Source: Candidatus Gottesmanbacteria bacterium
GTDB lineage: Bacteria > Patescibacteriota > Microgenomatia > 2-02-FULL-39-11
NCBI GenBank assembly: GCA_016186795.1
Contig: JACPKY010000001.1
Location: 65,357-129,356, forward strand
Direction: 5' to 3'
DNA length: 64,000 bases
Below, in pieces: positions 10,150 to 60,567 of the stretch (the first letter of the stretch is position 1; the number at the start of each line of letters is the position of its first letter). A program made the translations under genes and the position numbers. The notes below the pieces were generated by a model, which was given only the letters and a program-made list of their open reading frames with translations, made no database searches and was not told the DNA's origin.

Positions 10150-10185
10150 CTGAAGAGGATTTTGGCCCATGTCAGTTTAGACATG

Positions 10186-10722
10186 TCACTTTAGGATAGT
10201 GATATTTGGTTGGCCAATCGGCAGATCTGATTTGGCCGGATCCCAAAGTAAGTAAACTTTCCCATACGTCTCATTTAACATTTCCACCACTTTGGCTGCT
10301 TCCGTTTCTGATAAATCAGGAAGTTTCGCATTGATTTTGGGAATCTCCTCTCTATGATAATGCCACAACTTTTGTTCGCCAGCGGTTAATCCTTTCCACG
10401 TATTTGTATCGACCACCGTCTCTACTCCTACAAGTCTTGCGTCTTTATCATCTGAATCGTACAGCTGACACTCAAACATACCGCCTTTGACCTGTTTACA
10501 GAAGTGATGTGCTATTTTTTTCTCATCAGCTGGGAAATGTTTCTCTGCATCAATATGAAGAGTAAATCCTTGGTATGGTTTATTTTCTACCTGAGTCATG
10601 GGAGAAGGCTGTGGTGTTTGTGTTGTTGTAGGGCTAACAGTTGCACCGCCTCTTACTACATATCCTAAAACTGCGCCAACGATCAGTACTACTCCTAGCA
10701 TCATCCATTTATTTTGTTCCAT
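10186..10722 (-). CDS. Hypothetical membrane-anchored protein (about 179 aa from the internal start)
   Basis: Best start is MEQNKWMMLGVVLIVGAVLG (TM helix), preceded by an AAGGAAGGGGGTGAG RBS on the minus strand. The longer ORF to 10860 lacks an RBS. Thr/Pro linker, then a His-rich soluble domain (HHFC...WHYH). Confidence 0.45.
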   Translation of the reverse strand: MEQNKWMMLGVVLIVGAVLGYVVRGGATVSPTTTQTPQPSPMTQVENKPYQGFTLHIDAEKHFPADEKKIAHHFCKQVKGGMFECQLYDSDDKDARLVGVETVVDTNTWKGLTAGEQKLWHYHREEIPKINAKLPDLSETEAAKVVEMLNETYGKVYLLWDPAKSDLPIGQPNITILK

Positions 10723-10810
10723 GTTTTTGGAACTCACCCCCTTCCTTTGTGATATACGCCACAACAAGTTTTTACTATAAAACTTTACCTTTTGCAATCT
10801 GGTATAATAA

Positions 10811-11023
10811 TTGTGTATGAAAAACGTCATTTCGATGCCGAAAGTATTCCAAGACCCCAAGTATCGGGGAAAACATATTATTCTCGCAGCTGGAAAAGTA
10901 TATACGGCTACTACTGGTGAGCAAGCGGCAAAAATTTTGAAGCGTCTGGAAAAAACACACCCCGAAGTAACCCCAGAAGTGGCCTATCTCCCCAAAGCTC
11001 GTTCCCTTATCTTATGGATGTAA
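10811..11023 (+). CDS. Small hypothetical protein (about 60-70 aa), conserved-looking partner of the downstream aspartic protease
   Basis: MPKVFQDPKYRGKHIILAAGKVYTATTGEQAAKILKRLEKTHPEVTPEVAYLP. Overlaps the start of the retropepsin-like gene by 10 nt, which suggests translational coupling. Confidence 0.45.
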   Translation: MCMKNVISMPKVFQDPKYRGKHIILAAGKVYTATTGEQAAKILKRLEKTHPEVTPEVAYLPKARSLILWM

Positions 11024-11424
11024 AATTTTCCTTCGAAGATGGAGGAAAAACTGCTCTTGGTCACATTTATCGACCCATTGCCAAAGTCACTTTTCATTCA
11101 CCAAAAGTAGAAAAAGCCGTTGATGTTTGGATGGTGGTTGATACTGGAGCAGACTATACTATACTTCCCCGTCATATTAGTAAAAAACTGCGTATTTCTT
11201 TTAAATCTGACTGTATCAAAGATAAAACCTTTGGTGTGGGAGGAAATCAAACAATTTATTTTTATAAATCGAAACTGAAAGCGACCATCGGATCAATTGA
11301 AAGAAAAATTCCGATTGCTTTTTTTGATAACAATGAAATTCCTCCTCTGTTAGGACGCCTCGGATTTTTGGAATCATTTGATACGGAGTTTCTAAAAACC
11401 CATATTGTAATCTTCAAAGACTAA
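11014..11424 (+). CDS. Retropepsin-like (clan AA) aspartic protease, 136 aa
   Basis: VWMVVDTGADYTILP contains the D-T-G-A active-site signature of single-domain retroviral-type aspartyl proteases. Size fits a homodimeric bacterial retropepsin-like protein. Confidence 0.6.
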   Translation: MDVKFSFEDGGKTALGHIYRPIAKVTFHSPKVEKAVDVWMVVDTGADYTILPRHISKKLRISFKSDCIKDKTFGVGGNQTIYFYKSKLKATIGSIERKIPIAFFDNNEIPPLLGRLGFLESFDTEFLKTHIVIFKD

Positions 11425-11425
11425 A

Positions 11426-12385
11426 ATGAAGATCATCGTAAGTTTGGGAATAATTCTAGTTGTAATACTTTTTGTAGTAAGCCTCTATTTCCTAGCTCCG
11501 ACAGGTTTTTCCGATGAAAAAATTCGTATCGTTCGCCCGCTCGATTTTCCTGCCGATACCATTTTTTCACAATTGGAAGATCAGAATCTTATCCGGTCGA
11601 AAACACTTCTTTCACTTCTCCTTTTCGTACTAAAACCCGGAGGAACTATTGAACCAGGAGCCTATCAACTCTCACATCGCATGAATCTATTCCAAATCGC
11701 AGACACTCTCCTCAATCACCCGTATCAGAAATGGGTAACTCTTATACCCGGTCTCAGAAAAGAGCAGGTTGCAGAAAAATTGGCAGAAAAATTTTCATGG
11801 AAAGATTCGCAAACGAAAGAATTTCTTGAAATTGCGAAGGAAGGATACCTTTTCCCGGACACGTATTTACTAAACGTCGATTATTCTCCTGAGGAAATGT
11901 ACCAGCGGATACTTTCCAATTTCAACGAAAAATTTGATGCGCAAATGCAAAAGGATTTACTTTCCCAAAACATTCGAAATGATACGGCAATCAAAATTGC
12001 CTCCCTCATCGAACGAGAAGCAGGTGGAGAAGATGATAAAGCATTGATTGCCGGTATCATTTGGAACCGGCTGAATAAGAATATGAAGCTGCAAATAGAT
12101 GCGACGATTCAGTATGCTATGGGAAAAGGTCATGGCTTTCCTGCCGATAGTTGGTGGCCGGAAGTTTCCCATGATGATATTCTCACAAATGAATCACCAT
12201 ACAACACGTATAAATATGAAGGACTTCCCCCAGGACCAATTGCTAGCCCTTCGCTTTCTTCAATCAAATCCGTTGTCTATCCCCAAGAAACCGATTGCCT
12301 CTACTACCTCCATGATGCTAATAAACAAATCCACTGTGCCGAAACTTACGAAGAACATCTGGAGAATATCAAAAATTATTTGTAG
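11426..12385 (+). CDS. mltG: Endolytic murein transglycosylase MltG (YceG family)
   Basis: N-terminal TM (IIVSLGIILVVILFVVSLYF). YceG-like body with EAGGEDDKALIAGIIWNRL, LQIDATIQYA and YNTYKYEGLPPGPIASPS motifs typical of MltG. Confidence 0.85.
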   Translation: MKIIVSLGIILVVILFVVSLYFLAPTGFSDEKIRIVRPLDFPADTIFSQLEDQNLIRSKTLLSLLLFVLKPGGTIEPGAYQLSHRMNLFQIADTLLNHPYQKWVTLIPGLRKEQVAEKLAEKFSWKDSQTKEFLEIAKEGYLFPDTYLLNVDYSPEEMYQRILSNFNEKFDAQMQKDLLSQNIRNDTAIKIASLIEREAGGEDDKALIAGIIWNRLNKNMKLQIDATIQYAMGKGHGFPADSWWPEVSHDDILTNESPYNTYKYEGLPPGPIASPSLSSIKSVVYPQETDCLYYLHDANKQIHCAETYEEHLENIKNYL

Positions 12386-12870
12386 TATAAAAGAAATATA
12401 TGAAGAAACTTTTTAATTGGGAACTTATTCTTTTTTCGGCAATTCTGTTCGTGGGAGTGGGCCTGACACAACTTTCCTCGATGAGTTTCTTGGATATCCA
12501 ACTCCCTTCAAATTTATTCAATACACAACCAAGTGTAACCCCTACCCCAACGCCTGAATCGTAAATTATTTTCGAAGTAAAAGAGGAAGAAAATGGCCAA
12601 TAACGCCTATCGCCAAAAATGACAACCCCCACCTTAAAGGATGTCCTCCAACTATCGGGTATGTAATAAGAATTCCCACTCCAACCCCGGCACACCAATG
12701 AATAACTGCATTGTAGTTTTCATGTTCCTTAAAGTAATCGCGCAGTTTTTGAAAATATGATTGCACAAAAATCACCCCTGAATACATTGTGAAAGATCGT
12801 ATAAACAAAGTCAATTGACTTTAGATTATTGAGGAATGGACGTATATTCTGATAGAATAAGACGTCTTTT

Positions 12871-12952
12871 GCCGAGGTGGCTCAGTGGTAGAGCGAGTAC
12901 TTGGTAAGTACTAGGTCACGGGTCCAATTCCCGTCCTCGGCTCAGAAATTTT
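12871..12952 (+). tRNA. tRNA-Thr (anticodon GGU) with atypical T-loop (TCCAATT)
   Basis: Acceptor GCCGAGG/CCTCGGC, D-arm GCTC-AGTGGTA-GAGC, anticodon stem AGTAC/GTACT with loop TTGGTAA (anticodon GGT), T-stem ACGGG/CCCGT. Position 55 is C rather than U, which is unusual. Confidence 0.7.
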
Positions 12953-12992
12953 GTTGAGTCAGATAAACGGTCCCGACTCAGTCGGGATTGAC

Positions 12993-13030
12993 TGTGGGTT
13001 CGATTCCCACCTCAGGCTCACAACGCGACC
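12993..13030 (+). other. tRNA-like 3' fragment (canonical T-arm plus 3' acceptor strand plus CA) lacking a matching 5' acceptor strand
   Basis: GTGGG-TTCGATT-CCCAC, then CTCAGGC-T-CA, sits 40 nt after tRNA-Thr(GGU). No GCCTGAG 5' partner exists nearby. It could be a pseudo-tRNA or an integration-site remnant. Confidence 0.3.
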
Positions 13031-13060
13031 CTAGAAATGGGCTTTTGGTGAATATTATAT

Positions 13061-13318
13061 CTATTGATTGATAACGTAATAGTCAATGAGTCGGCGTATC
13101 ATTGCTTGATAAGATGCTTTGTGTTTTTTGGCAACGCTCTTAAAAAAATCTAGGCTTTTCGAAGTCAACGTCAATGTTACGCGCGTTTTTTTCTCCTTAA
13201 GAATAAGATCTTCAGGCTTAGGGAGAAAATCGCTTACCACTCGTGCTTCAATTGGTTCGTTATTGTACCTGATTTTGCTTTTCATAGATTTTTTTCCCCT
13301 TTCTCCAGTAACCGGCAC
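13061..13318 (-). CDS. brnA: BrnA-type antitoxin (CopG/RHH-like)
   Basis: MKSKIRYNNEPIEARVVSDFLPKPEDLILKEKKTRVTLTLTSKSLDFFKSVAKKHKASYQAMIRRLID matches BrnA family antitoxins. Overlaps the 3' end of the upstream BrnT gene. The true start is probably the internal MKSKIRY at 13285. Confidence 0.6.
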   Translation of the reverse strand: MPVTGERGKKSMKSKIRYNNEPIEARVVSDFLPKPEDLILKEKKTRVTLTLTSKSLDFFKSVAKKHKASYQAMIRRLIDYYVINQ

Positions 13319-13544
13319 CGATTATTCGAATACGGTTTGCCCGGTAGGTAAATCGGACAGTTAGTACACCTCCTTTCACTTTTCCAAAAACATAATATCT
13401 TTTTTCTTTTTTACTATGTGATGTATCTTCGGCAACAATACGCATTGGATCTATAAATGCATATTGAGCCGTCTCAAAATCTACTCCATGTTTTTCTACA
13501 TTTTCACTATTTTTCTTCTCATCCCACTCAAATGAAGTTTTCAT
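13260..13544 (-). CDS. brnT: BrnT-family toxin (DUF497 ribonuclease toxin)
   Basis: FEWDEKKNSENVEKHGVDFETAQYAFIDPMRIVAEDTSHSKKEKRYYVFGKVKGGVLTVRFTYRANRIRIIGAGYWRKGKKIYE follows the DUF497/BrnT consensus (F.WD..KN..N..KHGV.F.EA...F.DP; ...IRIISAR...E...YE). Confidence 0.7.
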   Translation of the reverse strand: MKTSFEWDEKKNSENVEKHGVDFETAQYAFIDPMRIVAEDTSHSKKEKRYYVFGKVKGGVLTVRFTYRANRIRIIGAGYWRKGKKIYEKQNQVQ

Positions 13545-13645
13545 ATAGGTATGACTATTTTTCATATATTTTAGCATATATTTATATGAAATATCAATCC
13601 ACAAAAAAGCACCAAAATAAGAAATCTGCTACAATAGTCTAGCTT

Positions 13646-14446
13646 ATGCAGTCTACAAAATCTCGCATCGATATCGCCCGTGAAGGGTTTATGAAGAAGG
13701 AGAAAGATCTTTCTCTTGCCGCACATACCAAAAAAACAATTCAAGCATCGATAAACCACAAAGAAGGCCACAAGACGAGCTTTAATCTTCCTGAGATTAT
13801 TTTAGGCGGACAAGATGGACTGGTGAATGTCTTGGGGGTGATACTCGGAGTTGCAGCAGCAACTGGAGATACCCGAATCGTTGTTATTGCCGGACTTGCG
13901 GCCACATTTGCTGAAAGTATTTCCATGGGAGCTGTTGCCTACACCGCAACTCTTGCTGAAGTCGACTATTACCACTCAGAGCATGAAAGAGAAAAATGGG
14001 AAATAGAACACTTTCCAAAAGGCGAAAAAGAAGAAGTACGAAGTCTCTATAAGCGATATGGATTCAAGGGAGATCTTTTAGAAAAAATTGTCGACACAAT
14101 TACGTCTGATAAAAAGGTCTGGTTGGAGGTTATGATGAATCAAGAACTCAAACTCGAACCTGTGGATCGAGGAAGCGCACTGCAAAAGGCGTTCATCGTG
14201 GGAATTTCTGCAGTCATCGGATCGTTCATCCCTCTTACCCCCTATTTTCTTTTTTCGGTAAAAGACGCAACAGTCGTCTCGCTTTTTTTCTCGGCTTTTG
14301 TCCTTTTTGCAATCGGATACTATAAAGCGCGGGTAACACTTGGAAGGAAACTCATAAGTCAAGGTCTGCAGATGATGGTCATTGGAATGGTATCGGCAAT
14401 CGTGGGATACTTTATCGGGACACTTTTTAAAATAACTGGGTTCTAA
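13646..14446 (+). CDS. VIT1/CCC1-family (vacuolar iron transporter-like) membrane protein
   Basis: GGQDGLVNVLGVILGVAAATGDTRIVVIAGLAATFAESISMGAVAYT is the hallmark N-terminal TM block of the VIT family (PF01988). A C-terminal second TM bundle is present. Confidence 0.6.
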   Translation: MQSTKSRIDIAREGFMKKEKDLSLAAHTKKTIQASINHKEGHKTSFNLPEIILGGQDGLVNVLGVILGVAAATGDTRIVVIAGLAATFAESISMGAVAYTATLAEVDYYHSEHEREKWEIEHFPKGEKEEVRSLYKRYGFKGDLLEKIVDTITSDKKVWLEVMMNQELKLEPVDRGSALQKAFIVGISAVIGSFIPLTPYFLFSVKDATVVSLFFSAFVLFAIGYYKARVTLGRKLISQGLQMMVIGMVSAIVGYFIGTLFKITGF

Positions 14447-14497
14447 AAAACCATCCGTATTGCGGAAATCTTCTCGCTTGTATATAATTGCCGAACT

Positions 14498-14671
14498 ATG
14501 GCAAAGAAAGAAAAACGTGTCGTCATTGCTCTTGTCTGTACTGTTTGCAAAAGCCAAAATTACATAACGTCAAAAAATAAGTTAAACCAAAAAGAGAAAC
14601 TCGTACGGAGCAAATTCTGCAAGCATTGTCGCAAACATACCCAACACAAAGAGACGGAGAAGCTGGACTAA
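14498..14671 (+). CDS. rpmG: 50S ribosomal protein L33
   Basis: MAKKEKRVVIALVCTVCKSQNYITSKNKLNQKEKLVRSKFCKHCRKHTQHKETEKLD carries the L33 pattern (MAK...I.L.C..C..NY.T.KNK....L.L.K.C..C..HT.HKE.K). It is below the 60-aa cutoff of the ORF track. Confidence 0.8.
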   Translation: MAKKEKRVVIALVCTVCKSQNYITSKNKLNQKEKLVRSKFCKHCRKHTQHKETEKLD

Positions 14672-14674
14672 GCC

Positions 14675-15235
14675 ATGCCTAAAGGTACTGCATATCTTTT
14701 CATTGTCCTTTCTGCACTTGCATTTTTCCTGATTGGCTTTAATGCGGGCAAGATTCTTGGTCCCAAAAATGAAAGTATCACCATACTTCCTTCTCCAACA
14801 CCTTTTCCGCCAACACCCACCCCTTCACTCCTCCCTACCCTTCCATTGAAAGAGTCGACATCTTCGGGGCAAGTACAGGGAACATCAACATACACCAACA
14901 GGTCATGCGGATTTTCATTCTCCTATCCGGGATCGTACCTAAACCAAAAATCGGTCAATAACCAATCGATTATTCTGACCGACCCAAATAATCCAAATCT
15001 GGCAATAGCAACAACGTGTGCTGCACGACTACCAAAACCCTCCATAGGGCCTGAAAATATTGAGATTATTACTCTTGGCGGAGAAACGGCAACCCTCTAC
15101 CATGATAAAGATGAAGAAGGAAATCCGAGGGAAGATGTGTTTGTTACTCACCCGGAAACTGGGATGGAAATTATCATTGCCGGCTTTGGCGCAGCCTTCC
15201 AAAGCGCTCTTTCTACCTTTAAATTTATTCGATAA
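14675..15235 (+). CDS. Hypothetical membrane-anchored extracellular protein
   Basis: TM helix (YLFIVLSALAFFLIGF), then a PSPTPFPPTPTPSLLPTLP linker and a soluble domain. Its start is 4 nt after the rpmG stop. First gene of a tight plus-strand four-gene block. Confidence 0.5.
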   Translation: MPKGTAYLFIVLSALAFFLIGFNAGKILGPKNESITILPSPTPFPPTPTPSLLPTLPLKESTSSGQVQGTSTYTNRSCGFSFSYPGSYLNQKSVNNQSIILTDPNNPNLAIATTCAARLPKPSIGPENIEIITLGGETATLYHDKDEEGNPREDVFVTHPETGMEIIIAGFGAAFQSALSTFKFIR

Positions 15236-15250
15236 GCCCCATTTTTTGGT

Positions 15251-16045
15251 ATGCTGATGAAGCTCCACGGGCTTACGCCCGTGGTATCTTCAAATTCTTC
15301 GGCGAGCGGAATCCGCCGAAGCATAAAAACCTCGCTATCGTTATTGCAAATGGTTGTACTCCCCTGTAAAATTAATCAACTCATGTATCAATTCATCTTC
15401 CTAAAAAGTGCCATTTCTCACACTACAACGACCGAACTCGTATTGGCACTTGTTCAGAAAATCTCGGAACCGGGCCTCACAGTTCAAATACTCAAGCTCC
15501 CATATACTTCAAAGGTACCTGTCAAAGCCAACTACCTGAAAGAGCTGTACCTTTCACCGGATCTTTTCTCTTCTCTCCCCATAGAAAAATTGACAGCTGA
15601 GGAAATCCAGTCTGACGAATTCATTATCCATTTCCCATTCAAAGGCCAATCTCTTGACCCTCTCGATAACCGTTTTGGAGACCTCTTTGGAACTCTTGTA
15701 CGAGTCAACCACATGCTCTTTCCCCTTCCCCACACCGACCTTATAACACTAAACACCTCCGTCGACAGCCTGAGTGTAAGCCGATTTGCAACAGACTCAT
15801 CAACCCCCCAGAAACTCTATACCACCGAGCCTTTTTATCAATCTCTGGACCCAAACACCAACCCCGCATCTATCCAATGCCAAGTTAGAGACCCGAAAAC
15901 GGGGAGGCAATATTCTCGTGAAATTCAACTCAGTAACACAGGATTATCTTTTGACCTAGATCTTTCCGACCCTCTCAGAGAGGAACCAATAAGAGAAAAA
16001 TTTGCCCAATCAGGGCTTGCACTCGTATCATCACTCCTATGTTAA
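15251..16045 (+). CDS. Hypothetical protein (264 aa)
   Basis: Long ORF tightly packed with its neighbours (16-nt gap upstream, 7-nt overlap downstream). No recognisable motif. Confidence 0.4.
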   Translation: MLMKLHGLTPVVSSNSSASGIRRSIKTSLSLLQMVVLPCKINQLMYQFIFLKSAISHTTTTELVLALVQKISEPGLTVQILKLPYTSKVPVKANYLKELYLSPDLFSSLPIEKLTAEEIQSDEFIIHFPFKGQSLDPLDNRFGDLFGTLVRVNHMLFPLPHTDLITLNTSVDSLSVSRFATDSSTPQKLYTTEPFYQSLDPNTNPASIQCQVRDPKTGRQYSREIQLSNTGLSFDLDLSDPLREEPIREKFAQSGLALVSSLLC

Positions 16046-16338
16046 AGAAAAAGTCCCTCATACGAGAAATTCTTGTTGCAGATTGTCCTGTCTGCAAAGA
16101 AGATTTTTCCCTGGACTGCACCAACACCGCACCGTCACGGGGTGACTACGGTCTTTTCTTCCTTTATCCCCCTCTCAACAAAAGAACTCCCAGTGAAAAA
16201 TTTGCAGAACTAAACGAGCAATTACGAACAGAGTCTCCTTGCAAAGTAATCGAGGTCTGGGAAGAAAAACTCGAAGAGCACAGAAAAAACTGTCAAGGGC
16301 AGATCACAATTCAAGGACTCGAAACGAAGCCAAGCTGA
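16039..16338 (+). CDS. Hypothetical small protein with CxxC pair (99 aa)
   Basis: CPVCKEDFSLDC near the N-terminus and a C-terminal CQGQ. Overlaps the upstream gene by 7 nt. Confidence 0.4.
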   Translation: MLKKKSLIREILVADCPVCKEDFSLDCTNTAPSRGDYGLFFLYPPLNKRTPSEKFAELNEQLRTESPCKVIEVWEEKLEEHRKNCQGQITIQGLETKPS

Positions 16339-16344
16339 ACTACT

Positions 16345-16602
16345 ATGTCATCAACGTATCTGGTCTTCACTTGTCATAAATGCCAAAAAAGCCTCCAACT
16401 ATACCAAAAGTCTGAAGTAGACGTAACCTTGGTCGGATCACTTCTGAAAGAAAAAAACCAAAAAACAATTCGAACCGTTGGGATACTTTTGGTATGTCAA
16501 CAAAACATCCGCCACTTTCATCACTGGCTTGACGAAATTGTCATGCACCGTGTCGCGTGTGACGGAAGCGTGGAATTCGGCGGCCAGGGATTCCTTGACT
16601 AG
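16345..16602 (+). CDS. Hypothetical small protein with CxxC (85 aa)
   Basis: FTCHKCQKSLQLY. Begins 7 nt after the previous gene. Last member of the four-gene block. Confidence 0.35.
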   Translation: MSSTYLVFTCHKCQKSLQLYQKSEVDVTLVGSLLKEKNQKTIRTVGILLVCQQNIRHFHHWLDEIVMHRVACDGSVEFGGQGFLD

Positions 16603-16629
16603 TTTCTCGTATCGATCACCATTTTACGT

Positions 16630-18162
16630 ATGGAAGATAATTCTTCAATTCATTCCTCCCTCAACCACCACCGATACGCAACCTTTGCAATCGTCACTTT
16701 TCTTATCATTCTGACAATCGGTGTTGTCTTTATCTCTCAACAATTTCAACATCAGCTCGTTGCAATTTCTCAATCGAAAGCTGCAGAACCGACCCTTGCG
16801 GGAACAAATACATTCACTCATGGACCTCTTGTTGGTGCTGTTTCTGATACATCGGCAACGGTGTGGGTCCGAATACAAGAAGCCAAAACGAATCAAAATC
16901 TTTCTGTTTCCCTGAAATCACAAACGGCAGGAGAAGCCGTTAAAACGGCATCCCTTATTCCTGTCCACTTCACAACCGACTCAGGTTGGGACTATACGTG
17001 GAAGGCAGAAGTGGAAAATTTGACTCCACTCACGACCTATATCGTCAATGTCCGGAACAATGGCATCAATCTCGCTCCACCAATTGGGAAAAAAACTCAG
17101 TTCAAAACCTTTGCATCAAAAGGTGTGGATAAGGATTTTAAAATCCATATCTTTACCGATTTTGGCACGAAGAATTCGAGCCAGGATTACGTCGTAACAA
17201 ATACGTTTCCCTCAGCAGCAAGTGAGCCAATCAAGCCTGATATGGTTGTTGTTGGAGGAGATTTCTGGCACTTCAATAGCGCCCAAGGACTCAAACCTGA
17301 TCAACTGAATAAATTCATCAAAAACCAGCAGCAATATTTCAAATACAGCTATATGCTCAATAGTCCGATTGCTCCTCTTGATGATTTTGTCAGTCAGTTT
17401 CTTGCCAACTATCCGCTGGTACATTTTTTTGATGATCATGACCAAGGATTAAATAACACTGATAAAACATTCCAGTGGAAGACTCAATCAATTCAAGTTT
17501 TGAAAGATTTCTTCCCAGTCTATCAAGAAGAAAGTATGACGAATGGTGATTGGCAACAATTTTCCTATGGTCAGGCAGATTTCTTTGTTCTTGATACACG
17601 AAGTCAAAGAGATCCGAATAGTACTGCCGATGGTCCAGCGAAATCAATGCTTGGTCAAGAACAATTGCAATTTCTGAAAAATGGACTCATTTCTTCAACA
17701 GCGAAATGGAAAATCATCTTTTCACCCTCTCCGTTTAATCCAACCCTTCCAAAGAATGATGCATGGGCTGGGTTCAAATTTGAACATGACGATATCGTAA
17801 ATTTTGTCAAAACGAACGGAACACAAGGAGTTATCGTTATTTCAGGAGATGCTCATGCAGGAGGAATCGATGATGGAACCAATGCTGGTCTTGCTGAACT
17901 GTTTGTTCCTTCCCCTAACGTTGACCACTGTGCAACCGTTGGTCCAACACTTGGTACATGGAGTCATGGATCATATGGGACTGCAGACCATGGAGGAGAT
18001 GATCCTCCATGTCCGGGATATGGAACGGTGCGAATTTTAACCAATCCCGATCGGGCCGTCCTTCGTGTAAAAGATGATAATGGTAGGAAAAAACTCATGT
18101 ACCGATATTTTCTGAATCCTCAAGATAGCCAACGATACAAAAATCTTGCGGAAGATGAGTAA
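16630..18162 (+). CDS. PhoD-like metallophosphatase (alkaline phosphatase D family), membrane-anchored
   Basis: N-terminal TM (FAIVTFLIILTIGVVFI). PhoD_N-like GPLVGAVSDTSATVWVR, then the calcineurin-like core with VVVGGDFWH, FFDDHDQG and VISGDAHAGG metal-ligand motifs. Confidence 0.65.
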   Translation: MEDNSSIHSSLNHHRYATFAIVTFLIILTIGVVFISQQFQHQLVAISQSKAAEPTLAGTNTFTHGPLVGAVSDTSATVWVRIQEAKTNQNLSVSLKSQTAGEAVKTASLIPVHFTTDSGWDYTWKAEVENLTPLTTYIVNVRNNGINLAPPIGKKTQFKTFASKGVDKDFKIHIFTDFGTKNSSQDYVVTNTFPSAASEPIKPDMVVVGGDFWHFNSAQGLKPDQLNKFIKNQQQYFKYSYMLNSPIAPLDDFVSQFLANYPLVHFFDDHDQGLNNTDKTFQWKTQSIQVLKDFFPVYQEESMTNGDWQQFSYGQADFFVLDTRSQRDPNSTADGPAKSMLGQEQLQFLKNGLISSTAKWKIIFSPSPFNPTLPKNDAWAGFKFEHDDIVNFVKTNGTQGVIVISGDAHAGGIDDGTNAGLAELFVPSPNVDHCATVGPTLGTWSHGSYGTADHGGDDPPCPGYGTVRILTNPDRAVLRVKDDNGRKKLMYRYFLNPQDSQRYKNLAEDE

Positions 18163-18300
18163 CCTCCTCTTACACTTTTGGCAAAACTGCGCCTAGCCCG
18201 TTCATCTGTCTCCATACTCCAGCTTCCCGCCCTACAACATTTCCATCATACTCTATCGTATGGAAACACGAAAATTGGTATAATAAGCGGATTAAACGAT

Positions 18301-18374
18301 AGGCCCATAGGTTAATGGTAGACCAGAGGACTCCAAATCCTCTAGTGGGGGTTCGATTCCCTCTGGGCCTGCCA
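18301..18374 (+). tRNA. tRNA-Trp (anticodon CCA), CCA encoded
   Basis: Acceptor AGGCCCA/TGGGCCT, D-arm GGTT-AATGGTA-GACC, anticodon stem GAGGA/TCCTC with loop CTCCAAA (anticodon CCA), T-arm GGGGG-TTCGATT-CCCTC, discriminator G plus CCA. An extended -10 (TGgTATAAT) lies at about 18279-18287. Confidence 0.85.
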
Positions 18375-42081: not shown

Positions 42082-42590
42082 GTACGTTGATAAGTGTTCA
42101 CATGCAGCACTTCCTTCCTGTTTCTTGATTGAAGGTATGAAACACCTGAAGCTTGGTAATGTAGAAAAGGGGAAAGTTAACTTGGCTGTCTATCAAGGCA
42201 GGTTCCAAATATTATTTTGCAAATATCTAAAACTCCTGATTCCGCTGGTACAAGCTGGCTTACAGAAGGCCAATAAACCAGCGGAACCAAGAGTCTTAGT
42301 TCTGTAATTTGCTTGTTTTTTAAAGTGCTATTTTTCTAGAATCATTTTATCAAAAAAGCAGATGCAGTCAAGTAGTTCTGTGATATTTCTTCATAAATAG
42401 AAAAATGAGGCTAGATAAAAGTACTTTTCATTTACGTGTTCTCCCTACATATGTGCCGGAAGAACCTATTGCTAAAGTTGAACCCTTATGATATAAATAC
42501 CTTTATCCAAAGACAGTAGGCAACCATAAGACCTACCGAGGAAAAATTAGTATCTAGTATTTGGTATCAAGTATTTAGAAGATTAATTTA

Positions 42591-42613
42591 CCTCGGAAAT
42601 CCGAGGTTTTTTG
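42591..42613 (+). terminator. Hairpin plus T-run immediately upstream of rplJ (leader attenuator or terminator)
   Basis: cctcggaaatccgaggttttttg: stem CCTCGG/CCGAGG, loop AAAT, then T6. It ends 20 nt before the rplJ start. Confidence 0.4.
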
Positions 42614-42632
42614 TTATTTGTTTTCTGAAACT

Positions 42633-52465: not shown

Positions 52466-53170
52466 ATGGATAATATTTGGCTAAGCCAAATTATAAGAAA
52501 TCTAGAACTATTTGAACGTGATTTTGTAATCGCTTGCCAAAAGGCTGGGAGGAAAAAAGAAGATGTACAGATTCTCTACGCCACAAAATATCTTCAACCC
52601 CACGAATTTTTGGAATTTGTAAACTTTCTTCACGATACAAAGCGCCCGATCATCATCGGAGAAAATCGCATACAGGATGGAAAGAAGAAGTTAGACTTTG
52701 TTAAAAATCAAAAGCCAATACTTTTCAAGTACATTACTCCAATATCTATTGGGACTCTTCAAACGAACAAAATAAATACCGCACTGACCTACTTTTCAGA
52801 AATTCACTCGGTCGATTCTCTTGACCTCGCTGTGGACTTGAACAATCGTCTCGCAAGATCGGGAAAAACCCTTGCTGTGTATATAGAAGTCAATGCGTCA
52901 GGAGAACAAGCAAAGCATGGATTGACTCCTTCTGAATTTCCACGCGTGTATACTACAATTCAACAATTGAAATATATTCATGTAAAAGGACTTATGACAA
53001 TGGCACCATTAACAGAGAATGTAAAAACTATTCATAATGTCTTCAGGAAAGCAAGAACCTTGGCCAACACATATGGTCTTCTCACGTCTATGGGCATGAG
53101 TCATGATTGGAAAATAGCGCTCGAAGAAGGAAGCGTTATGATAAGAATTGGTTCAGCAATTTTTTCATAA
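52466..53170 (+). CDS. yggS: YggS-family pyridoxal-phosphate homeostasis protein (PLPBP)
   Basis: [11 protein letters not shown] (PLP Lys), [55 protein letters not shown]. The track ORF starts at 52298, but that overlaps gnd; the internal MDNIW start is used instead. Confidence 0.7.
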
Positions 53171-54679
53171 CCACGTTCTCCCGTCCTTTTCTAAAAGACG
53201 CTTTGCTTCATCTGGACCCCAACTTCCAGGAATATAGATTGGAAGAGGATACGTCTCATTTTTCTCCCAAACATGCAATATTCTCGTGATAAACTCCCAA
53301 CTTGCAGCTAACTCATCACTTCTATTAAATAACATCTGATCTGCTTGAAACGCCGAGAGTAATACTCGTTCATAGGCTTCTATTGGCTTTCTGCCGACAA
53401 AGGACTGCTCATAGTGCATCTCTAAATCAGCCGGTTTCATGACAAATTTATGCTGTGGCTCTTTGGTAATAAAACGGATTCGAATTCCCTCTTTGGGGCT
53501 TATACAAAAAGTAAGAACATTCCCCTCCTCCGGACATCCGTATTCTTTAAAGAGGATATGACATGTCTGTTTAAATACTATTGAGATTTCTACCCTATCC
53601 TCCTTCATTCGCTTACCGCTTCGTAAGTACCAAGGTACTCCTTGCCAACGGGCAGAATCTGAAAAGACTTTCATTGCAACAAACGTCTCTGTTTTGGATA
53701 ATCGATCGACACCTTTTTCCTCTCTATATGGACCATATTGGCCGCGGATAACGTGAGAGTTTACCTCACTTTCTTTCAAACACCGAAGCGATTTTATTGC
53801 CGAAGTACGAGCGTCACGCACACTATCACCTGAGAAACTCTTTGGCTGTTCCATAGCAATAAGAGCAAACATTTCAAGTACATGATTTTGCATTACATCC
53901 CGAAGAGCTCCAAGTCCATCGTAGAGCTTACCCCTTCCATCAACTCCACCGGCCTCAGCCATGGTAATTTGGATATGATCAACATATTCCTTATTCCAAA
54001 TCGGCTCAAAGATACTGTTAGCAAATCTAAATGTAATAATGTTTTGGATTACCTCTTTGCCAAGATAATGATCAATTCTATAAATTTGTTTTTCTTCAAA
54101 CGTAGCTGCCAGCTTCTCTTCAAGTAACTTTGCCTGGTCTATATCTTTTCCAAAGGGTTTCTCAATAAGAATTCTTGTCCAACGGTTACTACCCTGTCCA
54201 CAACCTTCTGCAAGTTTTGTTTTTTCAAGCTTTGTCAAAATTGTTGAATAATTTTGCGGGGGAGTTGCCAAATAAAAAAAACGACTAATACACGCGCCCA
54301 TTTGTTTATCAAATGAGGAAAGAAGTTCTATAAGCTTTCCATATGGGCTATCATCTTCAAAAAGACCCTCTTGATAAAAGAGATTTTTAGAAAGTTTATT
54401 CCAGACTGATCCATCGACATTTTTTGTCAGTCTCTGTTTATCCAAGGATACTCTGATCATTTTCCGGAACTCCTCATGTGACATTGGACGACGGGAAAAA
54501 CCAACGATGAGAAACGCCTCAGGAAGGATCTTTTGTGAAAGTAAACTCAAAAGAGCCGGTATAAGTTTTCTTTGCATCAAATCCCCTGTTGCGCCAAAAA
54601 TGACCATGACGAAAGGAGAAATTGTAGGATTCATAGCCGCTTTATTTTTCTTTCTTATGATGCGAACTGCCAATTGCAC
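53165..54679 (-). CDS. zwf: Glucose-6-phosphate 1-dehydrogenase
   Basis: NADP-binding [21 protein letters not shown], active-site [16 protein letters not shown]. Confidence 0.85.
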
Positions 54680-55028
54680 TCAGAATTAATGCAAGAAACA
54701 GAAAACCCCACCCTGCAATATAGAAAAGTATAGGAAAAAGGTCAGACAGAATAAGGTTGACGATCCGTTGAAGTTTGAAATGAGGTTGAACCGTAATGAG
54801 AGATCGTAATGTCTGTTCCCGAAGACCAGTTATAATATGTTTGTCGTACTCATAGGAGAAAAGAAGGATAGCAAATGCCAGAAGAATGAAAGTTGAGACC
54901 CGTGATGGTCGATAAAGAGAGAGACTAATTCCAAGAATAATCCCCATGAAGTAGGCAAATGCTTCATAGTTGTGGGAAAAAAGAAGATACACTGTTACTA
55001 TGATATTCTGTTGAAGATCCGGAGCCAT
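54642..55028 (-). CDS. Hypothetical small membrane protein (128 aa)
   Basis: Three or four TM helices. Sits between pgl and zwf in the same orientation. Confidence 0.4.
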
Positions 55029-55040
55029 TCTCTTATTCTA

Positions 55041-55823
55041 CTAGATTTGAACATCAGTAAAAAGGTGAACATACTTTATTTCATCTAAGATTATTGCTGG
55101 AAAAATACCAAGGTTTTTCCTATTGTGATAGTCCTGTAACTTTTTTAAAATGGATCTTTTCTTCTCACCAACAACATAAACAACAGCCACATCCATCAAT
55201 CGAAGAGCTTTCGGAGTTAAAGTAATCCTTTGAGGAAATTGTCCTGTGTTTCTATAACCTACAACGAGGTGATCTATGTTCCATTTCTGTCCGTACCCAG
55301 GCAAGAGTCCAGCGGTATGGCCATCCTTCCCCATCCCTAGAAGAGCAATTTTATAAAAATCTTCCGAAAATAATTGCTTTATTTCTTTTTCGTATCCTTG
55401 TGCCGAAATCCCGAGCGTCCCTTTTTGAGAAACTAGATGTACCGGAATATTTTTCCCTTTGCAAACGTTCCAAAGTCCAGTTTTGCCTATCTCAATAGCA
55501 TTAATAGAGCTTGTGTTCTTTTGTCCTCTGTTTACTGTTATCTGTTTACTGTTATCTGTTTTCTGAGATGGCTGGAATCGTTCATCAACTTGCGCAAGAG
55601 CAAGATGGGTATGTCTCACTTGTTTAAGATAAATGCCGAATTGGACATAAACATCTACCAAACTTCCTCCGGATAAAAAGAGGGAAACTCCTTTGTTTAA
55701 ATTCCTCTGGAGCTGAGATAAAATGAAAACCACTAAATTTTCAATAGTTTTCTCTCTGGATACAAAAGTATGGACTAAAACACTCTCCATTGATTTAATC
55801 TTTCTTTTGAAGAAGATCAGCAA
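55041..55823 (-). CDS. pgl: 6-phosphogluconolactonase-like (NagB/Pgl family) with an internal low-complexity insertion
   Basis: LFLSGGSLVDVY and LLGMGKDGHTAGLLPG match the Pgl/NagB family. The central segment QPSQKTDNSKQITVNRGQKNTSS is encoded over a 14-bp tandem repeat. Confidence 0.55.
   Translation of the reverse strand: MLIFFKRKIKSMESVLVHTFVSREKTIENLVVFILSQLQRNLNKGVSLFLSGGSLVDVYVQFGIYLKQVRHTHLALAQVDERFQPSQKTDNSKQITVNRGQKNTSSINAIEIGKTGLWNVCKGKNIPVHLVSQKGTLGISAQGYEKEIKQLFSEDFYKIALLGMGKDGHTAGLLPGYGQKWNIDHLVVGYRNTGQFPQRITLTPKALRLMDVAVVYVVGEKKRSILKKLQDYHNRKNLGIFPAIILDEIKYVHLFTDVQI
55528..55565. repeat. 14-bp tandem repeat (ctgtttactgttat x2 plus a partial third) inside pgl
   Basis: ctgtttactgttat ctgtttactgttat ctgttttctg. 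Confidence 0.6.
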
Positions 55824-56892
55824 GTTTTTCTTTTATTCTCTCGGTTACTTCAACAAACACAACTCCTTCTTCGGGTTGGCCGTACAAAACGACTGACCCT
55901 AAAGGAGCAAGAAGAATAGCCGGCACCCCGGCAAGGTCATCTTCACCGTCAACCACAATGATGGTTGATGTAAGATTAAAAACTGCACGATGAAATGAAT
56001 CATAAATTGCATCAACAAGATTTTTTGTAATGGTACTAGGCGGATTGAATGCCTGTACTCGTATATATTGTTTGGCATCGGCGGATTCGCTCAGGATGAC
56101 AGAATCAGGAAATCCCAACTCAGAAATTGAATTATATTTCCTGATTCTGTGCACTTTAAAATCAATAACCGCGATATGGATTTTTTGATCAATGGTATTG
56201 AACAGTTTGGTTACCTCATCCCCAATTGTGATCACAAGATTTTCTTTCTTTAACTTCGCTTGGAGAATATCTGTTAGTTCACCTAAGTTGTTTGGGTTAC
56301 CGGCAACAAGTTCCCCTTGTGGTTTCTTCAGTTTCTGCCGGATATCTTCTGGAATACCGGACTCAAAAAAGCAAAGAGATCTATAGAGATGACCATATCT
56401 ATCAATTTCACCCTGCCGAATCCGGGTTGATGCAATTGAACGGTTATCTTCGGCCATTATCAAAGGTACTTCAATAAGTTTGAGTTTGGGAAGATTTAAC
56501 TCAACTCTTTTTCGATTTACCTCTTCTCCTCCTTTTTGTGAATCTTTTGTCACTACAAGAGCTTGGATCTGGGTCCTTTCTATAGCAGGTCCATAGACAT
56601 CATGAATTTCCACAATTTCCGCCCGTGGTAAGAAACCTTTTTCCTTCAAAAAATTTTCTAACTCTTTTTTTCTCTCTCCAAATTTTTGATATGTGATATG
56701 TATTTTTGATTTTTGTCCGCCAGCTGGCGGATTGATTTTTGATTTTGTGTAAACATCCGATGTTAATCCAATAATAACTTTGTCGCTTAACTCAAACGCC
56801 TTAAGGATAAAGGATTTGTGTCCCTGATGGAGACGGTCAAAGGTACCAGCAATGGCAACAACGGGATACGAATATGAAGACTGTTGAACCAT
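55795..56892 (-). CDS. Predicted bifunctional CoA-biosynthesis enzyme: archaeal-type phosphopantetheine adenylyltransferase (cytidylyltransferase fold) fused to a DUF359 GTP-dependent dephospho-CoA kinase-like domain
   Basis: N-terminal VVAIAGTFDRLHQGHKSF (the (H/T)xGH nucleotidyltransferase motif), IIGLTSD, and SIASTRIRQGEIDRYG (ISSTxIR motif) as in archaeal PPAT. C-terminal half has ...VITIGDEVT..., ...IAVIDFKVHR... and IIVVDGEDDLAGVPAILLAPLGSVVLYGQPEEGVV, matching my recollection of DUF359 (archaeal DPCK). Confidence 0.45.
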   Translation of the reverse strand: MVQQSSYSYPVVAIAGTFDRLHQGHKSFILKAFELSDKVIIGLTSDVYTKSKINPPAGGQKSKIHITYQKFGERKKELENFLKEKGFLPRAEIVEIHDVYGPAIERTQIQALVVTKDSQKGGEEVNRKRVELNLPKLKLIEVPLIMAEDNRSIASTRIRQGEIDRYGHLYRSLCFFESGIPEDIRQKLKKPQGELVAGNPNNLGELTDILQAKLKKENLVITIGDEVTKLFNTIDQKIHIAVIDFKVHRIRKYNSISELGFPDSVILSESADAKQYIRVQAFNPPSTITKNLVDAIYDSFHRAVFNLTSTIIVVDGEDDLAGVPAILLAPLGSVVLYGQPEEGVVFVEVTERIKEKLADLLQKKD

Positions 56893-56906
56893 ATAATAAA
56901 TATAAA

Positions 56907-58298
56907 TTAGAATGTTCCGGAAAGGAGTTTTTCGTACAATTCTCGGTATTTTCCAGCACTTTTCTCCCAGGAAAAATCAGTTTGCAATGCATTTTGTACC
57001 ATCGTCTCATATGACTTCCTATGGTTTTTCCAGATATTGATTGCTTTTGATACAGTATTTTCCAGAGACTTTGCCGAATAATTCTCAAATAAAAATCCGT
57101 TGAACCCATCCCGTATGGAATCGGCAAGTCCTCCGGTTTTGTGAGCAATGGGAAGTGCTCCAAACTCCATCGCACTCATCTGAATAAGCCCACATGGTTC
57201 AAATCTCGATGGGATAAGAATGAAATCTGCTCCACCATATATTTGATGAGCTAAAATTGTATCAAAGGTAAGTCTTGTTGCAATGGTTTTCGGATAAAAC
57301 GTTGATAACCATTGAAACCGATCTACCCATTGAATGTTACCCGATCCAAGAACTATCATCTGGTAGTCGTCCCGGTTACTCCCCTGCAGCATCTCGTAAA
57401 GAATTTCAATTCCTTTTTGGTTTGGGTCAAATCTGCCGATAAACGCAAGAAGTGGAATGGCGTTTCCTACTTTGAGCTTCAGTTTCCTTTGCAAAAACAG
57501 CTTATTCTTTCGCTTTACTTCTTCCCAATCAGGAAGTGTTGGAATCTTCACATAGCGATTGTTTTTCCAATGGTTCTGAATGCCATTGAGAATTCCAAAT
57601 AGCCTTCCTTCTTTTCCGCGTAATATTTCATCCAAACCCATCCCGTATTCTGTCGTTGTGATCTCCCGAGCATATGTTGGAGAAACTGTTGTGACAATAT
57701 CAGTATGAATAATTCCTTCCGCAAGCATTCGAGACGTTTCGCTACTGCCCTCCCACTTGGATACTTTCGATGAAAGATGTGGATATCCCATTTTTGTAAA
57801 GACTCCAAGCGGTATCGATCCCTGATATAAAAGATTATGGATGGTAAGAAGTGTTTTCATGGGAATCTTTTCCTCCTTTAAAAGAAGGGGAATAAGTCCT
57901 GTATGGTGATCGTTACAGTGGATAATATCCGGCCTCCAGTCGAGAATTTTCTGCTTGATGATGGAAATAATAACGCTATTGAAGAATGGGAATGTATCTG
58001 GAGGTTTTGGAACATCAAAAAAGGTGGAATTTTGCAAAAGGTATACGGAAATAGCCGAAGTAGGATGACGAATGGTAAAAATTTCAATTCGCTCTTTTTT
58101 CCTATCATAGGCAAGAGTGAGATTTCCTATTTTTGTTTTCCGCGATTGGTGAAGTTTTATCGCCTTGTAGTAAGGCATGATGACCCGTACTTCAACTCCG
58201 AGTGTCGACAAAGCTGCAGGAAGAGAGGAAGCAACATCCCCAAGACCTCCCCTTTTTAAGAACGGATCCATTTCCCAGGAAACAAAAAGAACGTTCAT
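56907..58298 (-). CDS. glgA: Glycogen/starch synthase (GT5, GlgA-like)
   Basis: MNVLFVSWEMDPFLKRGGLGDVASSLPAALSTLGVEVRVIMPYY is the GlgA N-terminal K-x-GGL motif. C-terminal GT-B domain with ...SRFEPCGLIQMSAMEFGALPIAHKTGGLADSI. Confidence 0.8.
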   Translation of the reverse strand: MNVLFVSWEMDPFLKRGGLGDVASSLPAALSTLGVEVRVIMPYYKAIKLHQSRKTKIGNLTLAYDRKKERIEIFTIRHPTSAISVYLLQNSTFFDVPKPPDTFPFFNSVIISIIKQKILDWRPDIIHCNDHHTGLIPLLLKEEKIPMKTLLTIHNLLYQGSIPLGVFTKMGYPHLSSKVSKWEGSSETSRMLAEGIIHTDIVTTVSPTYAREITTTEYGMGLDEILRGKEGRLFGILNGIQNHWKNNRYVKIPTLPDWEEVKRKNKLFLQRKLKLKVGNAIPLLAFIGRFDPNQKGIEILYEMLQGSNRDDYQMIVLGSGNIQWVDRFQWLSTFYPKTIATRLTFDTILAHQIYGGADFILIPSRFEPCGLIQMSAMEFGALPIAHKTGGLADSIRDGFNGFLFENYSAKSLENTVSKAINIWKNHRKSYETMVQNALQTDFSWEKSAGKYRELYEKLLSGTF

Positions 58299-59482
58299 CG
58301 TGATGCTTTTTTCATCTTTATCACCTTCTGATAAACTTTTTCATATCCACCAACGAAAGTGCGGATGGAAAAATTCTTTTCGACGTGCAAACGTGAGTTT
58401 TCTCTCATTTTTTTATATTCGAAAGGAGCGAGTGATTGAAGTTTTTTCAACGCTTCGATAAGTCCCTTTTCACCAACCTCTTTTATTAGATAGTCACCTG
58501 TTCTGTGATTGCTATCTGAATTTACTAAAAATCCCGTTACCCCATCAATTACAATTTCCGAAACTGCTCCCCTCGCAAATGCAATAACTGGAGTCCCACA
58601 AGCCATCGCTTCAATCATGACCATCCCAAACGGCTCCTCCCACTCTATGGGAAAAAGAAGCGCCTGAGCACCTCCATAGAGAAGAAACTTATCCCTCCCG
58701 TTTACCATCCCCGGTTTTCCGATGAGCTTGTTCCCCAAATAGGGCTTTACGCTGTTGACAAAATAATCTGATTCATGTGTTGCGTCAGGAAATTCAGTCC
58801 CAATCTCGAGCCGATTATTAACTGCGAGACAAGCAGAAATTGCATGGTGGAGTCCTTTTTCAGGGATGAGTCTTCCCATAAAAAGAAAATAATCCGATGC
58901 CTCTTTATATACAGGAAAATGTTGAGATTTTACTCCATGGTAGACTGTATCAATAAAATTTAATTTCAAATCTTTATGATGGCGAAATGAATTACTGATT
59001 GAGACATATGGATGATCTTTGAATTTTTTCAAAAGCCAGTAGACAAGCCCGTTTTCCTCAATCGGTAAAGGATCATGAAGCGTATACACTGTCGGAACAA
59101 GACTTAACGTATCAAAAAAATGAGCCATCGTATCATGGTATGAATGAATAATATCGAACTTTTCTACCTTTGCCATTTTGTAGCAACGAGAAGTCAAATC
59201 TATTTCATAGTTTCTTTTCAATCCGAAAAAACTAGACCATTTCGCTCTTTCAGTATAGCCTCGCATTTTTTCCTCAATCATATTTTTCCCAAGCAAATTA
59301 GGATCTCCTGAGATAATCTTAGCCTTTGTCGGCGTATCGGGGGTTGTAAAAAAATAGACTTCGTGTCCCTCACTAACTAGACCATCCGCAAGATCAATTG
59401 CAAGATCTCGAGGGGCAAATATCATTTCCCCATATCGTTTTGGAGACATATAGATGGATGGCAAAAGAAGTCCTATTCTCAT
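58295..59482 (-). CDS. Glycosyltransferase family 4 (GT-B, GT1 domain)
   Basis: EEPFGMVMIEAMACGTPVIAFARGAVSEIV (EX7E motif region). Confidence 0.75.
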   Translation of the reverse strand: MRIGLLLPSIYMSPKRYGEMIFAPRDLAIDLADGLVSEGHEVYFFTTPDTPTKAKIISGDPNLLGKNMIEEKMRGYTERAKWSSFFGLKRNYEIDLTSRCYKMAKVEKFDIIHSYHDTMAHFFDTLSLVPTVYTLHDPLPIEENGLVYWLLKKFKDHPYVSISNSFRHHKDLKLNFIDTVYHGVKSQHFPVYKEASDYFLFMGRLIPEKGLHHAISACLAVNNRLEIGTEFPDATHESDYFVNSVKPYLGNKLIGKPGMVNGRDKFLLYGGAQALLFPIEWEEPFGMVMIEAMACGTPVIAFARGAVSEIVIDGVTGFLVNSDSNHRTGDYLIKEVGEKGLIEALKKLQSLAPFEYKKMRENSRLHVEKNFSIRTFVGGYEKVYQKVIKMKKASR

Positions 59483-60567
59483 TGAATTGATCCTTTCGGA
59501 TTATGTGTTGCAAAAAAACTATCTGTCACCTCTCCTACCGTTTTTGCTAATATGCGATACGATTGTGTCGTTTCCGGTGCAGAATATTCTTTTGTTACCG
59601 GACGCATCTCACTAGCTTGGAAGGCTTTCTTGAAAGTAGAAAAATCAAAATGCTCGTCAAAACTATCTGGTAATTTATTATATATATCAGGAACGGCAAT
59701 ATCACGTTCCTGGTAATACCGTTTAAAACTGGTTGCTATTTCCCAAAATCTCCTTGGCGACACAATTGATGCTAAACGAGCCGATACATAATATGGATTA
59801 TTCCGTAAATTTTCCATCTGAATTGATTGTCCCTTATACGTAATCTCTTCATGAGGGGCAAAAGGAATTAGATCCTCGTATATCCGACCTATCTCAGGCT
59901 GAGTCTTGTCCAGATTCGCATAAATTTTCTGATAGTCAGGATTGTAACCATAATGCCGAAGAACTCGCTCCGTAGATAAAACAGTAACTCCTCTTTTATC
60001 CAACCCGAATGCTTTGATCGTTTCCCAAAGCCTGGGAATATGCCATTCAGATGACATAATCGCTAAATTCCCTTCCCAATATCCTCCAGCCTCCTTATCA
60101 AGAAAATTAATACCTTCCAAAATATTAAAGGTCGTTGAACTGGCTTTAGTATCCAATATTCTCGTTTTCTGATCGGCAATTTGTCTTTGCTCAGGACGTA
60201 TATGTTGTGGCTGAGTTCTATCGTACGTTGCGGCTAAAAGGCTAGCCTCGGTTAACGCTTGTTCAATAGGATGAGAATGAGGATTATTTTTTGCACTATC
60301 GTAACCGCTTAAAATGACTCTTTCTGTCATTCCACCGACAACAAGTAATTTTGCTGCCACAGCATTAAGCGTCGTATATATATTTTTCGCAACAGGATTA
60401 TCTTCTTCCATAACTAAACCTCTTCCTACTCCTTGTACTAATTGATTATTACTCTTAGCCGGCTCTAGATGTCTTCGGAGAGCCAATGGACCCATTCCAC
60501 AAACAATGACTCCATCAAGTGGTGCTTTCCCAACAGTTTCAACTCTTGGTGGACCCTCTCCGTTCAT
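59479..60567 (-). CDS. Hypothetical protein (362 aa) embedded in the glycosyltransferase cluster
   Basis: No motif recognised with confidence. Starts 4 nt inside the upstream GT4 gene. Confidence 0.4.
   Translation of the reverse strand: MNGEGPPRVETVGKAPLDGVIVCGMGPLALRRHLEPAKSNNQLVQGVGRGLVMEEDNPVAKNIYTTLNAVAAKLLVVGGMTERVILSGYDSAKNNPHSHPIEQALTEASLLAATYDRTQPQHIRPEQRQIADQKTRILDTKASSTTFNILEGINFLDKEAGGYWEGNLAIMSSEWHIPRLWETIKAFGLDKRGVTVLSTERVLRHYGYNPDYQKIYANLDKTQPEIGRIYEDLIPFAPHEEITYKGQSIQMENLRNNPYYVSARLASIVSPRRFWEIATSFKRYYQERDIAVPDIYNKLPDSFDEHFDFSTFKKAFQASEMRPVTKEYSAPETTQSYRILAKTVGEVTDSFFATHNPKGSIQ

Follow-up and report, generated by a model that had tools for sequence, protein, structure and literature searches.

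Fusions of phosphopantetheine adenylyltransferase (PPAT) with the arCOG04076 domain are known in uncultured archaea, for example in a marine group II/III euryarchaeote, and provided the clue that identified the archaeal dephospho-coenzyme A (CoA) kinase (DPCK; PMC6650551). GTP-dependent DPCK activity was shown for the Thermococcus kodakarensis protein TK1697, and three of its residues, Asp48, Asp67, and Asp125, were proposed to be catalytic (Shimosaka et al. 2019, PMC6650551); this prediction was stated to be validated by site-directed mutagenesis (PMC6650551). Entoporibacteria use an archaeal pantoate kinase (PoK) and phosphopantothenate synthetase (PPS) in CoA synthesis, while keeping a typical bacterial DPCK (PMC7883664). 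Here, we analyzed a 64,000-nucleotide stretch from a Candidatus Gottesmanbacteria bacterium of groundwater (assembly GCA_016186795.1, contig JACPKY010000001.1, positions 65,357 to 129,356 of the forward strand; referred to below as the window), which encodes a protein joining an archaeal-type PPAT to a DUF359 (arCOG04076) domain. Judged by its sequence and a predicted structure, this protein is very probably a bifunctional CoA synthase with a working PPAT and a working DPCK, two enzymes of archaeal type that would catalyze the final two steps of CoA synthesis. The gene and its parts are the following:

55795 to 56892, minus strand: putative bifunctional PPAT/DPCK (P0001), 365 residues, from the open reading frame (ORF) list and its translation, with both domains recognized by Pfam and NCBIfam.
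56380 to 56868, minus strand: archaeal/eukaryotic-type PPAT domain, residues 9-171, from the NF001985 and 3do8 matches.
56356 to 56379, minus strand: inter-domain linker SLCFFESG, residues 172-179, the gap between the hidden Markov model envelopes; its length varies among homologues.
55804 to 56355, minus strand: DUF359/arCOG04076 DPCK domain, residues 180-363, from the PF04019 and 8jvc matches.

The gene is one unbroken frame of 365 codons, with an ATG start and a TAA stop (55795-55797). The fusion matched 473 database proteins, and in nearly all of the 120 that were listed, a single chain holds both domains. The names among these matches include Gottesmanbacteria, Microgenomates, Levybacteria, and Patescibacteria, and the bacterial homologues are labeled either "pantetheine-phosphate adenylyltransferase" or "DUF359 domain-containing protein". 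A frameshift or misassembly was ruled out as the cause of the fusion, since an architecture found in hundreds of homologues is not an assembly artefact.

The N-terminal half matched the NCBIfam model NF001985 (PRK00777; COG1019) over residues 11-171, covering model positions 6-154 of 157 and scoring 139.4 bits (curated cut-off 104; E 1e-40). It also passed the broader Pfam family PF01467 (cytidylyltransferase-like; residues 15-160, 37.5 bits, cut-off 21). The Archaeoglobus fulgidus PPAT 3do8 was its best solved relative (phmmer, E 2.3e-20). Two nucleotidyltransferase motifs were located and compared across an alignment of 75 fused homologues:

56818 to 56829, minus strand: HxGH motif, H22-Q-G-H25, within GTFDRLHQGH; H22, G24, and H25 are invariant in the 75 homologues.
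56416 to 56436, minus strand: ISxTxxR-type motif IASTRIR, I153-R159; S155 and R159 are invariant in the 75 homologues.

I153, R157, and I158 of the latter are at least 90% conserved in the same alignment. The original prediction, made from the letters of this stretch, had read the two motifs as (T/H)xGH and ISSTxIR; the former stands, and the latter needs correction to IASTRIR.

The C-terminal half matched DUF359 and no other family in the Pfam and NCBIfam scans. The PF04019 (DUF359) match covers residues 227-363 and model positions 1-124 of 126, with 94 bits against a gathering cut-off of 25, and a six-frame search of the genome gave 96.4 bits at the same place. The likeness to DUF359 proposed in the original prediction is now a search result, and with the NF001985 match it bears out the proposed fusion of an archaeal-type PPAT to this family at 55795-56892. 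The CoaE model PF01121 has no match in the protein. The sole solved-structure match of this half was the GTP-dependent DPCK of T. kodakarensis, 8jvc (phmmer, E 1.8e-24), and pairwise alignment placed the three proposed catalytic residues of TK1697 as follows:

56218 to 56220, minus strand: Asp225, equivalent to TK1697 Asp48; invariant in the 75 homologues.
56161 to 56163, minus strand: Asp244, equivalent to TK1697 Asp67; invariant in the 75 homologues.
55936 to 55938, minus strand: Asp319, equivalent to TK1697 Asp125, within GEDDLAG; invariant in the 75 homologues.

Since these three residues and H22, G24, H25, S155, and R159 are all invariant among the fused homologues, both active sites look intact.

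An AlphaFold2 model built from the 75 homologues had a mean predicted local distance difference test score (pLDDT) of 92.7 and a predicted TM-score of 0.90. The top Foldseek matches of this model were 8jvc, 8jvg, and 8jvf for the C-terminal half (E 1e-15 to 5e-11; target-normalized TM 0.79-0.87) and 3do8 chains A and B for the N-terminal half (E 6e-9 and 4e-8; target-normalized TM 0.83-0.85), followed by many bacterial PPATs. In the proposed mechanism, the N-terminal domain would move AMP from ATP onto 4′-phosphopantetheine, giving dephospho-CoA, and the DUF359 domain would then phosphorylate the 3′-hydroxyl of dephospho-CoA, using Asp225, Asp244, and Asp319, to give CoA. The phosphate donor would probably be GTP, by analogy with the T. 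kodakarensis enzyme. Like the two activities, any channelling between the sites is something that we infer. The fusion would stand in for bacterial CoaD and CoaE.

The content of the window's own genome (1.32 Mb in three contigs, estimated to be 93.4% complete) was established by six-frame family searches. CoaE (PF01121) was not found. Bacterial CoaD was also not found, its only match being the fusion itself, where TIGR01510 scored 18.8-19.4 bits (19.4 bits in the genome search), against a cut-off of 103.3. The enzyme is thus of the archaeal type rather than the CoaD/CoaE type, as had been proposed. Type III PanK and AcpS were not found in the same searches. A bifunctional CoaBC is present (TIGR00521, 355 bits, cut-off 219.7), as is an archaeal-type PPS (NF010324, 318.6 bits, cut-off 227). 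Immediately upstream of the PPS gene, overlapping it by 1 nt, lies a GHMP kinase whose best match is PoK (133 bits). CoaBC lies at L003:1399-2631 on the minus strand, the PPS gene at L004:1309-2064, and the PoK-like kinase gene at L004:473-1309 (G000 C1). The genome also encodes HMG-CoA reductase, a CoA-dependent enzyme, and the cell therefore uses CoA thioesters. Together, CoaBC, PPS, and the PoK-like kinase make the fusion the end of a route from pantoate to CoA, and the organism probably makes CoA in this way. Most likely, the PoK-like kinase, the archaeal-type PPS, and CoaBC would make the 4′-phosphopantetheine inside the cell, starting from pantoate, beta-alanine, and cysteine that are imported; for pantoate and beta-alanine, uptake from outside is presumed. 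The earlier description, in which the protein serves two-step CoA salvage and its host otherwise seems devoid of biosynthetic capacity, does not fit this gene complement.

The distribution of the pathway was surveyed in 401 genomes spread evenly over the phylum and in 401 genomes of the class Microgenomatia; because the genomes are incomplete and related genomes are not independent of one another, the counts serve only as description. DUF359 is rare in the phylum sample (9 of 401 genomes), and common but patchy in the class, where it exceeded its cut-off in 118 of 401. The window's family has it in 18 of 20 genomes, four other families in 26 of 28, 18 of 24, 15 of 27, and 14 of 24, and many families in none. 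Almost all class matches lie inside open frames of 320-430 residues, and so appear to be fused. A clear CoaE (more than 60 bits) was found in 14 class genomes, and DUF359 in none of these; one family of 16 genomes has DUF359 in six and CoaE in ten. This count excludes weak P-loop matches to the CoaE model in 34 class genomes (18-26 bits, over the first 30-70 model positions). Neither DUF359 nor a clear CoaE was found in two thirds of the class genomes (269 of 401). CoaBC was found in 37 class genomes, 33 of them with DUF359, which leaves 85 of the 118 fusion-bearing genomes without it; salvage is plausible in these 85 because CoaBC was not found there. PPS was found only in the window's family, where it occurs in the window's genome and in 17 of 20 members, which are also the 17 members with CoaBC; the 360 other class genomes gave no PPS match.

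Several variants of the terminal enzymes were seen in these searches. In the CoaE-using family f3, nine of ten CoaE matches take up the N-terminal ~175 residues of ~376-406-residue open frames (genomes G083, G501, G557, G622, G672, G684, G696, G736, and G772), and this CoaE seems to be fused to something else. Some relatives of the window protein have a three-domain form, in which PPAT-DPCK is in frame with the downstream pgl (PF01182); one is P0040, of 589 residues, and another lies at G482:C14:35654-36043, in an open frame of 611 residues. Both a true fusion and a lost stop codon could account for this form. Stand-alone DUF359 proteins of 183-190 residues are annotated in two Gottesmanbacteria records, P0121 and P0122, and a split form was rejected for each. 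P0122 is identical to the C-terminal half of an unbroken 345-residue fused frame on the same contig (L007:3998-5035), so that a gene-calling artefact is its probable explanation; P0121 clusters with the fused protein L006.

Three other explanations were weighed against a CoA synthase at the end of a pantoate route. The PF01467 superfamily is broad, and the N-terminal half gave weak matches to the NMNAT, FAD synthetase, RfaE, TagD, and bacterial CoaD models (NCBIfam, E 1e-6 to 0.1), as might be seen if it were another nucleotidyltransferase, such as a nicotinamide mononucleotide (NMN), flavin mononucleotide (FMN), or sugar-phosphate adenylyl- or cytidylyltransferase, that makes a different cofactor. 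However, these matches cover ~40 residues around HxGH and fall far under their cut-offs, whereas the PPAT model spans the whole domain, archaeal PPAT is the nearest solved relative by both sequence and fold, and a PPAT joined to a DPCK domain suits consecutive steps of one pathway; such an identity is very unlikely. An NMN or FMN adenylyltransferase had been named in the original prediction as an outcome that would overturn it, but the NMNAT and FAD synthetase models reached E 0.001-0.1, against 1e-40 for PPAT. The other outcome named there, a C-terminal half that failed to match DUF359, is contradicted by DUF359 being its only family match. It is less likely still that the C-terminal domain has come to use a different substrate, for example one like that of thiamine pyrophosphokinase, or to play a non-catalytic regulatory role. 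The arCOG04076 family is distantly related to thiamine pyrophosphokinases (PMC6650551), and TK1697 is just ~35% identical to the domain. Nevertheless, the three aspartates and the sequence blocks GEEDLA, NPPG, and YGQP have been retained and are invariant across the 75 bacterial homologues, no other DPCK candidate was found when the window's genome was searched for CoaE, and the absence of DUF359 and CoaE co-occurrence in the 401 class genomes is what would be expected of two enzymes with the same job.

Pure salvage, in which a host or the surroundings would supply 4′-phosphopantetheine or dephospho-CoA and the upstream genes would either not work or have another use, is unlikely for the window's organism. 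The fusion does appear alone in the many class genomes that lack CoaBC, and some import of precursors is needed in any case, as PanB, an ApbA-type ketopantoate reductase (KPR), and PanD were not found in the window's genome. The intact CoaBC, the PPS, and the adjacent PoK-like kinase speak against it, and CoaBC and PPS occur together in 17 of 20 family members, which favours an upstream route that is kept and functional. A cell could also combine salvage with synthesis from pantoate. Several observations weigh against a CoA synthase that closes a pantoate route. The Thermococcales models for GTP-dependent DPCK (NF041125; residues 180-363, 110.6 bits, E 5.8e-32) and for CoaD (NF041124; 83.5 bits) stayed far below their equivalog cut-offs of 300 and 290. 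These models are narrow and order-specific, and the fusion is assigned only to the broader families; orthology in the strict sense is thus deduced from family, residues, and fold. The PoK-like kinase is likewise below its equivalog cut-off of 380, which makes the first step of the upstream route less sure. With PanB, KPR, and PanD missing from the search results, a source of pantoate and beta-alanine was not found in the genome. Finally, the 14 nt 5′ of the fusion ATG contain no visible Shine-Dalgarno-like sequence.

The origin of the fused gene was examined by scanning prokaryotic genomes, one for each species. Full-length fused matches were found in Gottesman-, Levy-, Chisholm-, Beckwith-, Woese-, and Roizmanbacteria, and in four DPANN archaea, namely three Micrarchaeota (L015, L019, and L020) and one "uncultured archaeon" (L026), whose proteins are colinear with the window protein over residues 9-363, at 31-37% identity. 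Stand-alone DUF359 genes were found in Thermococci, methanogens, haloarchaea, Hadarchaeota, and Thermoplasmatota. Metagenome-assembled genomes titled "uncultured Gammaproteobacteria" (L009-L013, L018, L024, L029, and L030) also carry the fused gene, and are placed in the tree among Levybacteria and Gottesmanbacteria; these titles are probably placeholders or wrong taxonomy. This tree of the DUF359 domain was built by a quick maximum-likelihood method from 95 rows, a set without the fused proteins of marine group II/III. When the 37 fused forms were constrained to one clade, the log-likelihood was 5.9 above that of the free tree, with an approximately unbiased test p-value of 0.62, and a single origin of the fusion common to CPR (candidate phyla radiation) bacteria and DPANN archaea is not rejected. 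As DUF359 is part of the pan-archaeal core (PMC6393860), and was seldom found in the sampled bacterial phylum, an archaeal origin is the economical reading. The fused gene appears to have been inherited within Microgenomatia and to be ultimately archaeal, with the fused form held in common with DPANN Micrarchaeota. The direction and donor of the transfer are matters that we infer, and the donor lineage cannot be named because the deep branches of the DUF359 tree are poorly separated.

The fusion gene lies within a run of co-directional, closely spaced genes. On its 5′ side are two GT4 glycosyltransferases followed by a glycogen/starch synthase, and on its 3′ side are a 6-phosphogluconolactonase, a 128-residue membrane ORF, and glucose-6-phosphate dehydrogenase (zwf). 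The immediate neighbours are the following:

56907 to 58298, minus strand: glycogen/starch synthase, the upstream neighbour, ending 14 nt before the fusion ATG (PF08323, 208 bits; gene order kept in L005-L009).
55041 to 55790, minus strand: 6-phosphogluconolactonase (pgl), the downstream neighbour (PF01182, 82.4 bits; gene order kept in five related loci).

The order GT4-GT4-glycogen synthase-PPAT/DPCK-pgl-small membrane ORF-zwf (window positions 53165-59482, minus strand) is kept in five Gottesmanbacteria-like loci (L005-L009). It places a CoA gene amid glycogen and pentose-phosphate genes, and a functional link is not obvious. The pgl ORF, as called mechanically, begins at a TTG at 55823 and overlaps the last 29 nt of the fusion; its start seems more likely to be the in-frame ATG at 55790, 5 nt past the fusion stop. 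The 128-residue hydrophobic ORF between pgl and zwf (54642-55028, minus strand) has no Pfam match and has a counterpart at the same position in L007, with 58% identity; it is a conserved small membrane protein. The gene run is headed by a 362-residue ORF (59479-60567, minus strand), for which no Pfam match was obtained at E 1e-5. Elsewhere in the window, Rfam identified a ribosomal protein L10 leader at 42489-42621 and four tRNAs within 9476-18371, in keeping with a bacterial host.

The genomes of Patescibacteria are reduced, and it is largely unsettled which cofactors these bacteria synthesize and which they obtain from partners. For CoA, the fusion gene and its genomic companions offer a specific answer. 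The window's family probably builds CoA from pantoate, with archaeal-type enzymes and the universal CoaBC; most other fusion-bearing Microgenomatia would only finish it from 4′-phosphopantetheine. If this is true, uptake of 4′-phosphopantetheine or dephospho-CoA is a concrete metabolic dependency of CPR bacteria. The strict either/or occurrence of DUF359 and CoaE is a clean instance, within a single bacterial class, of one enzyme being displaced by another that is not homologous to it, and the fused form common to DPANN archaea adds evidence for gene exchange between two ultra-small groups. It is conceivable, at somewhat less than even chances, that Microgenomatia acquired a ready-made fused archaeal CoA synthase by an interdomain transfer shared with DPANN Micrarchaeota. 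It would be the sole CoA gene in most lineages, with cells living on 4′-phosphopantetheine or dephospho-CoA from hosts or neighbours, and the window's family would additionally have assembled a pantoate-to-CoA route in which the steps up to phosphopantothenate and the last two steps rely on archaeal-type PoK, PPS, PPAT, and DPCK. No published description of such a route in a bacterium was found. Likewise, the open-access literature yielded no published account of DUF359 or its fusion in CPR bacteria, which is not proof of absence.

The protein is not a new kind of enzyme, since the PPAT-DUF359 fusion is already known in archaea and is common in Microgenomatia. What is added here is the confinement of the complete route to one family, the either/or relationship of DUF359 and CoaE, the share of genomes that have the fusion only, and the link to DPANN archaea. 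The published archaeal PPAT-arCOG04076 fusions, likened by description, have the same two domains in one chain; their hosts are archaea, whereas the host here is a CPR/Patescibacteria bacterium of the class Microgenomatia. TK1697 (8jvc, 8jvf, and 8jvg) aligns end to end with the C-terminal 184 residues, at ~35% identity, and shares their fold and three aspartates. However, TK1697 is a stand-alone protein of 177 residues, whereas the window protein is fused to PPAT and has an extra ~20 residues around positions 262-280, where pLDDT is lower. Archaeal PPAT (COG1019; TK2128; 3do8) shares the HxGH and ISxTRIR motifs and the fold of the N-terminal domain, the whole of 3do8 aligning to residues 12-169, and the window protein differs from it by a ~15-residue insertion at 54-70, of low pLDDT, and by the DPCK fusion. 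Bacterial CoaD and CoaE catalyze the two reactions proposed here, but the protein belongs to neither family by TIGR01510 or PF01121. Eukaryotic CoA synthase is likewise a PPAT-DPCK fusion (PMC6650551), but its DPCK is of the P-loop type; the kinase domain in the window has no PF01121 match, and is thus not a P-loop CoaE, which makes the two fusions analogous and convergent in their kinase halves. The Entoporibacteria resemble the window's genome in the use of archaeal-type CoA enzymes by a bacterium, and differ in the terminal steps, which are of archaeal type in the window's genome, whereas Poribacteria have a bacterial DPCK.

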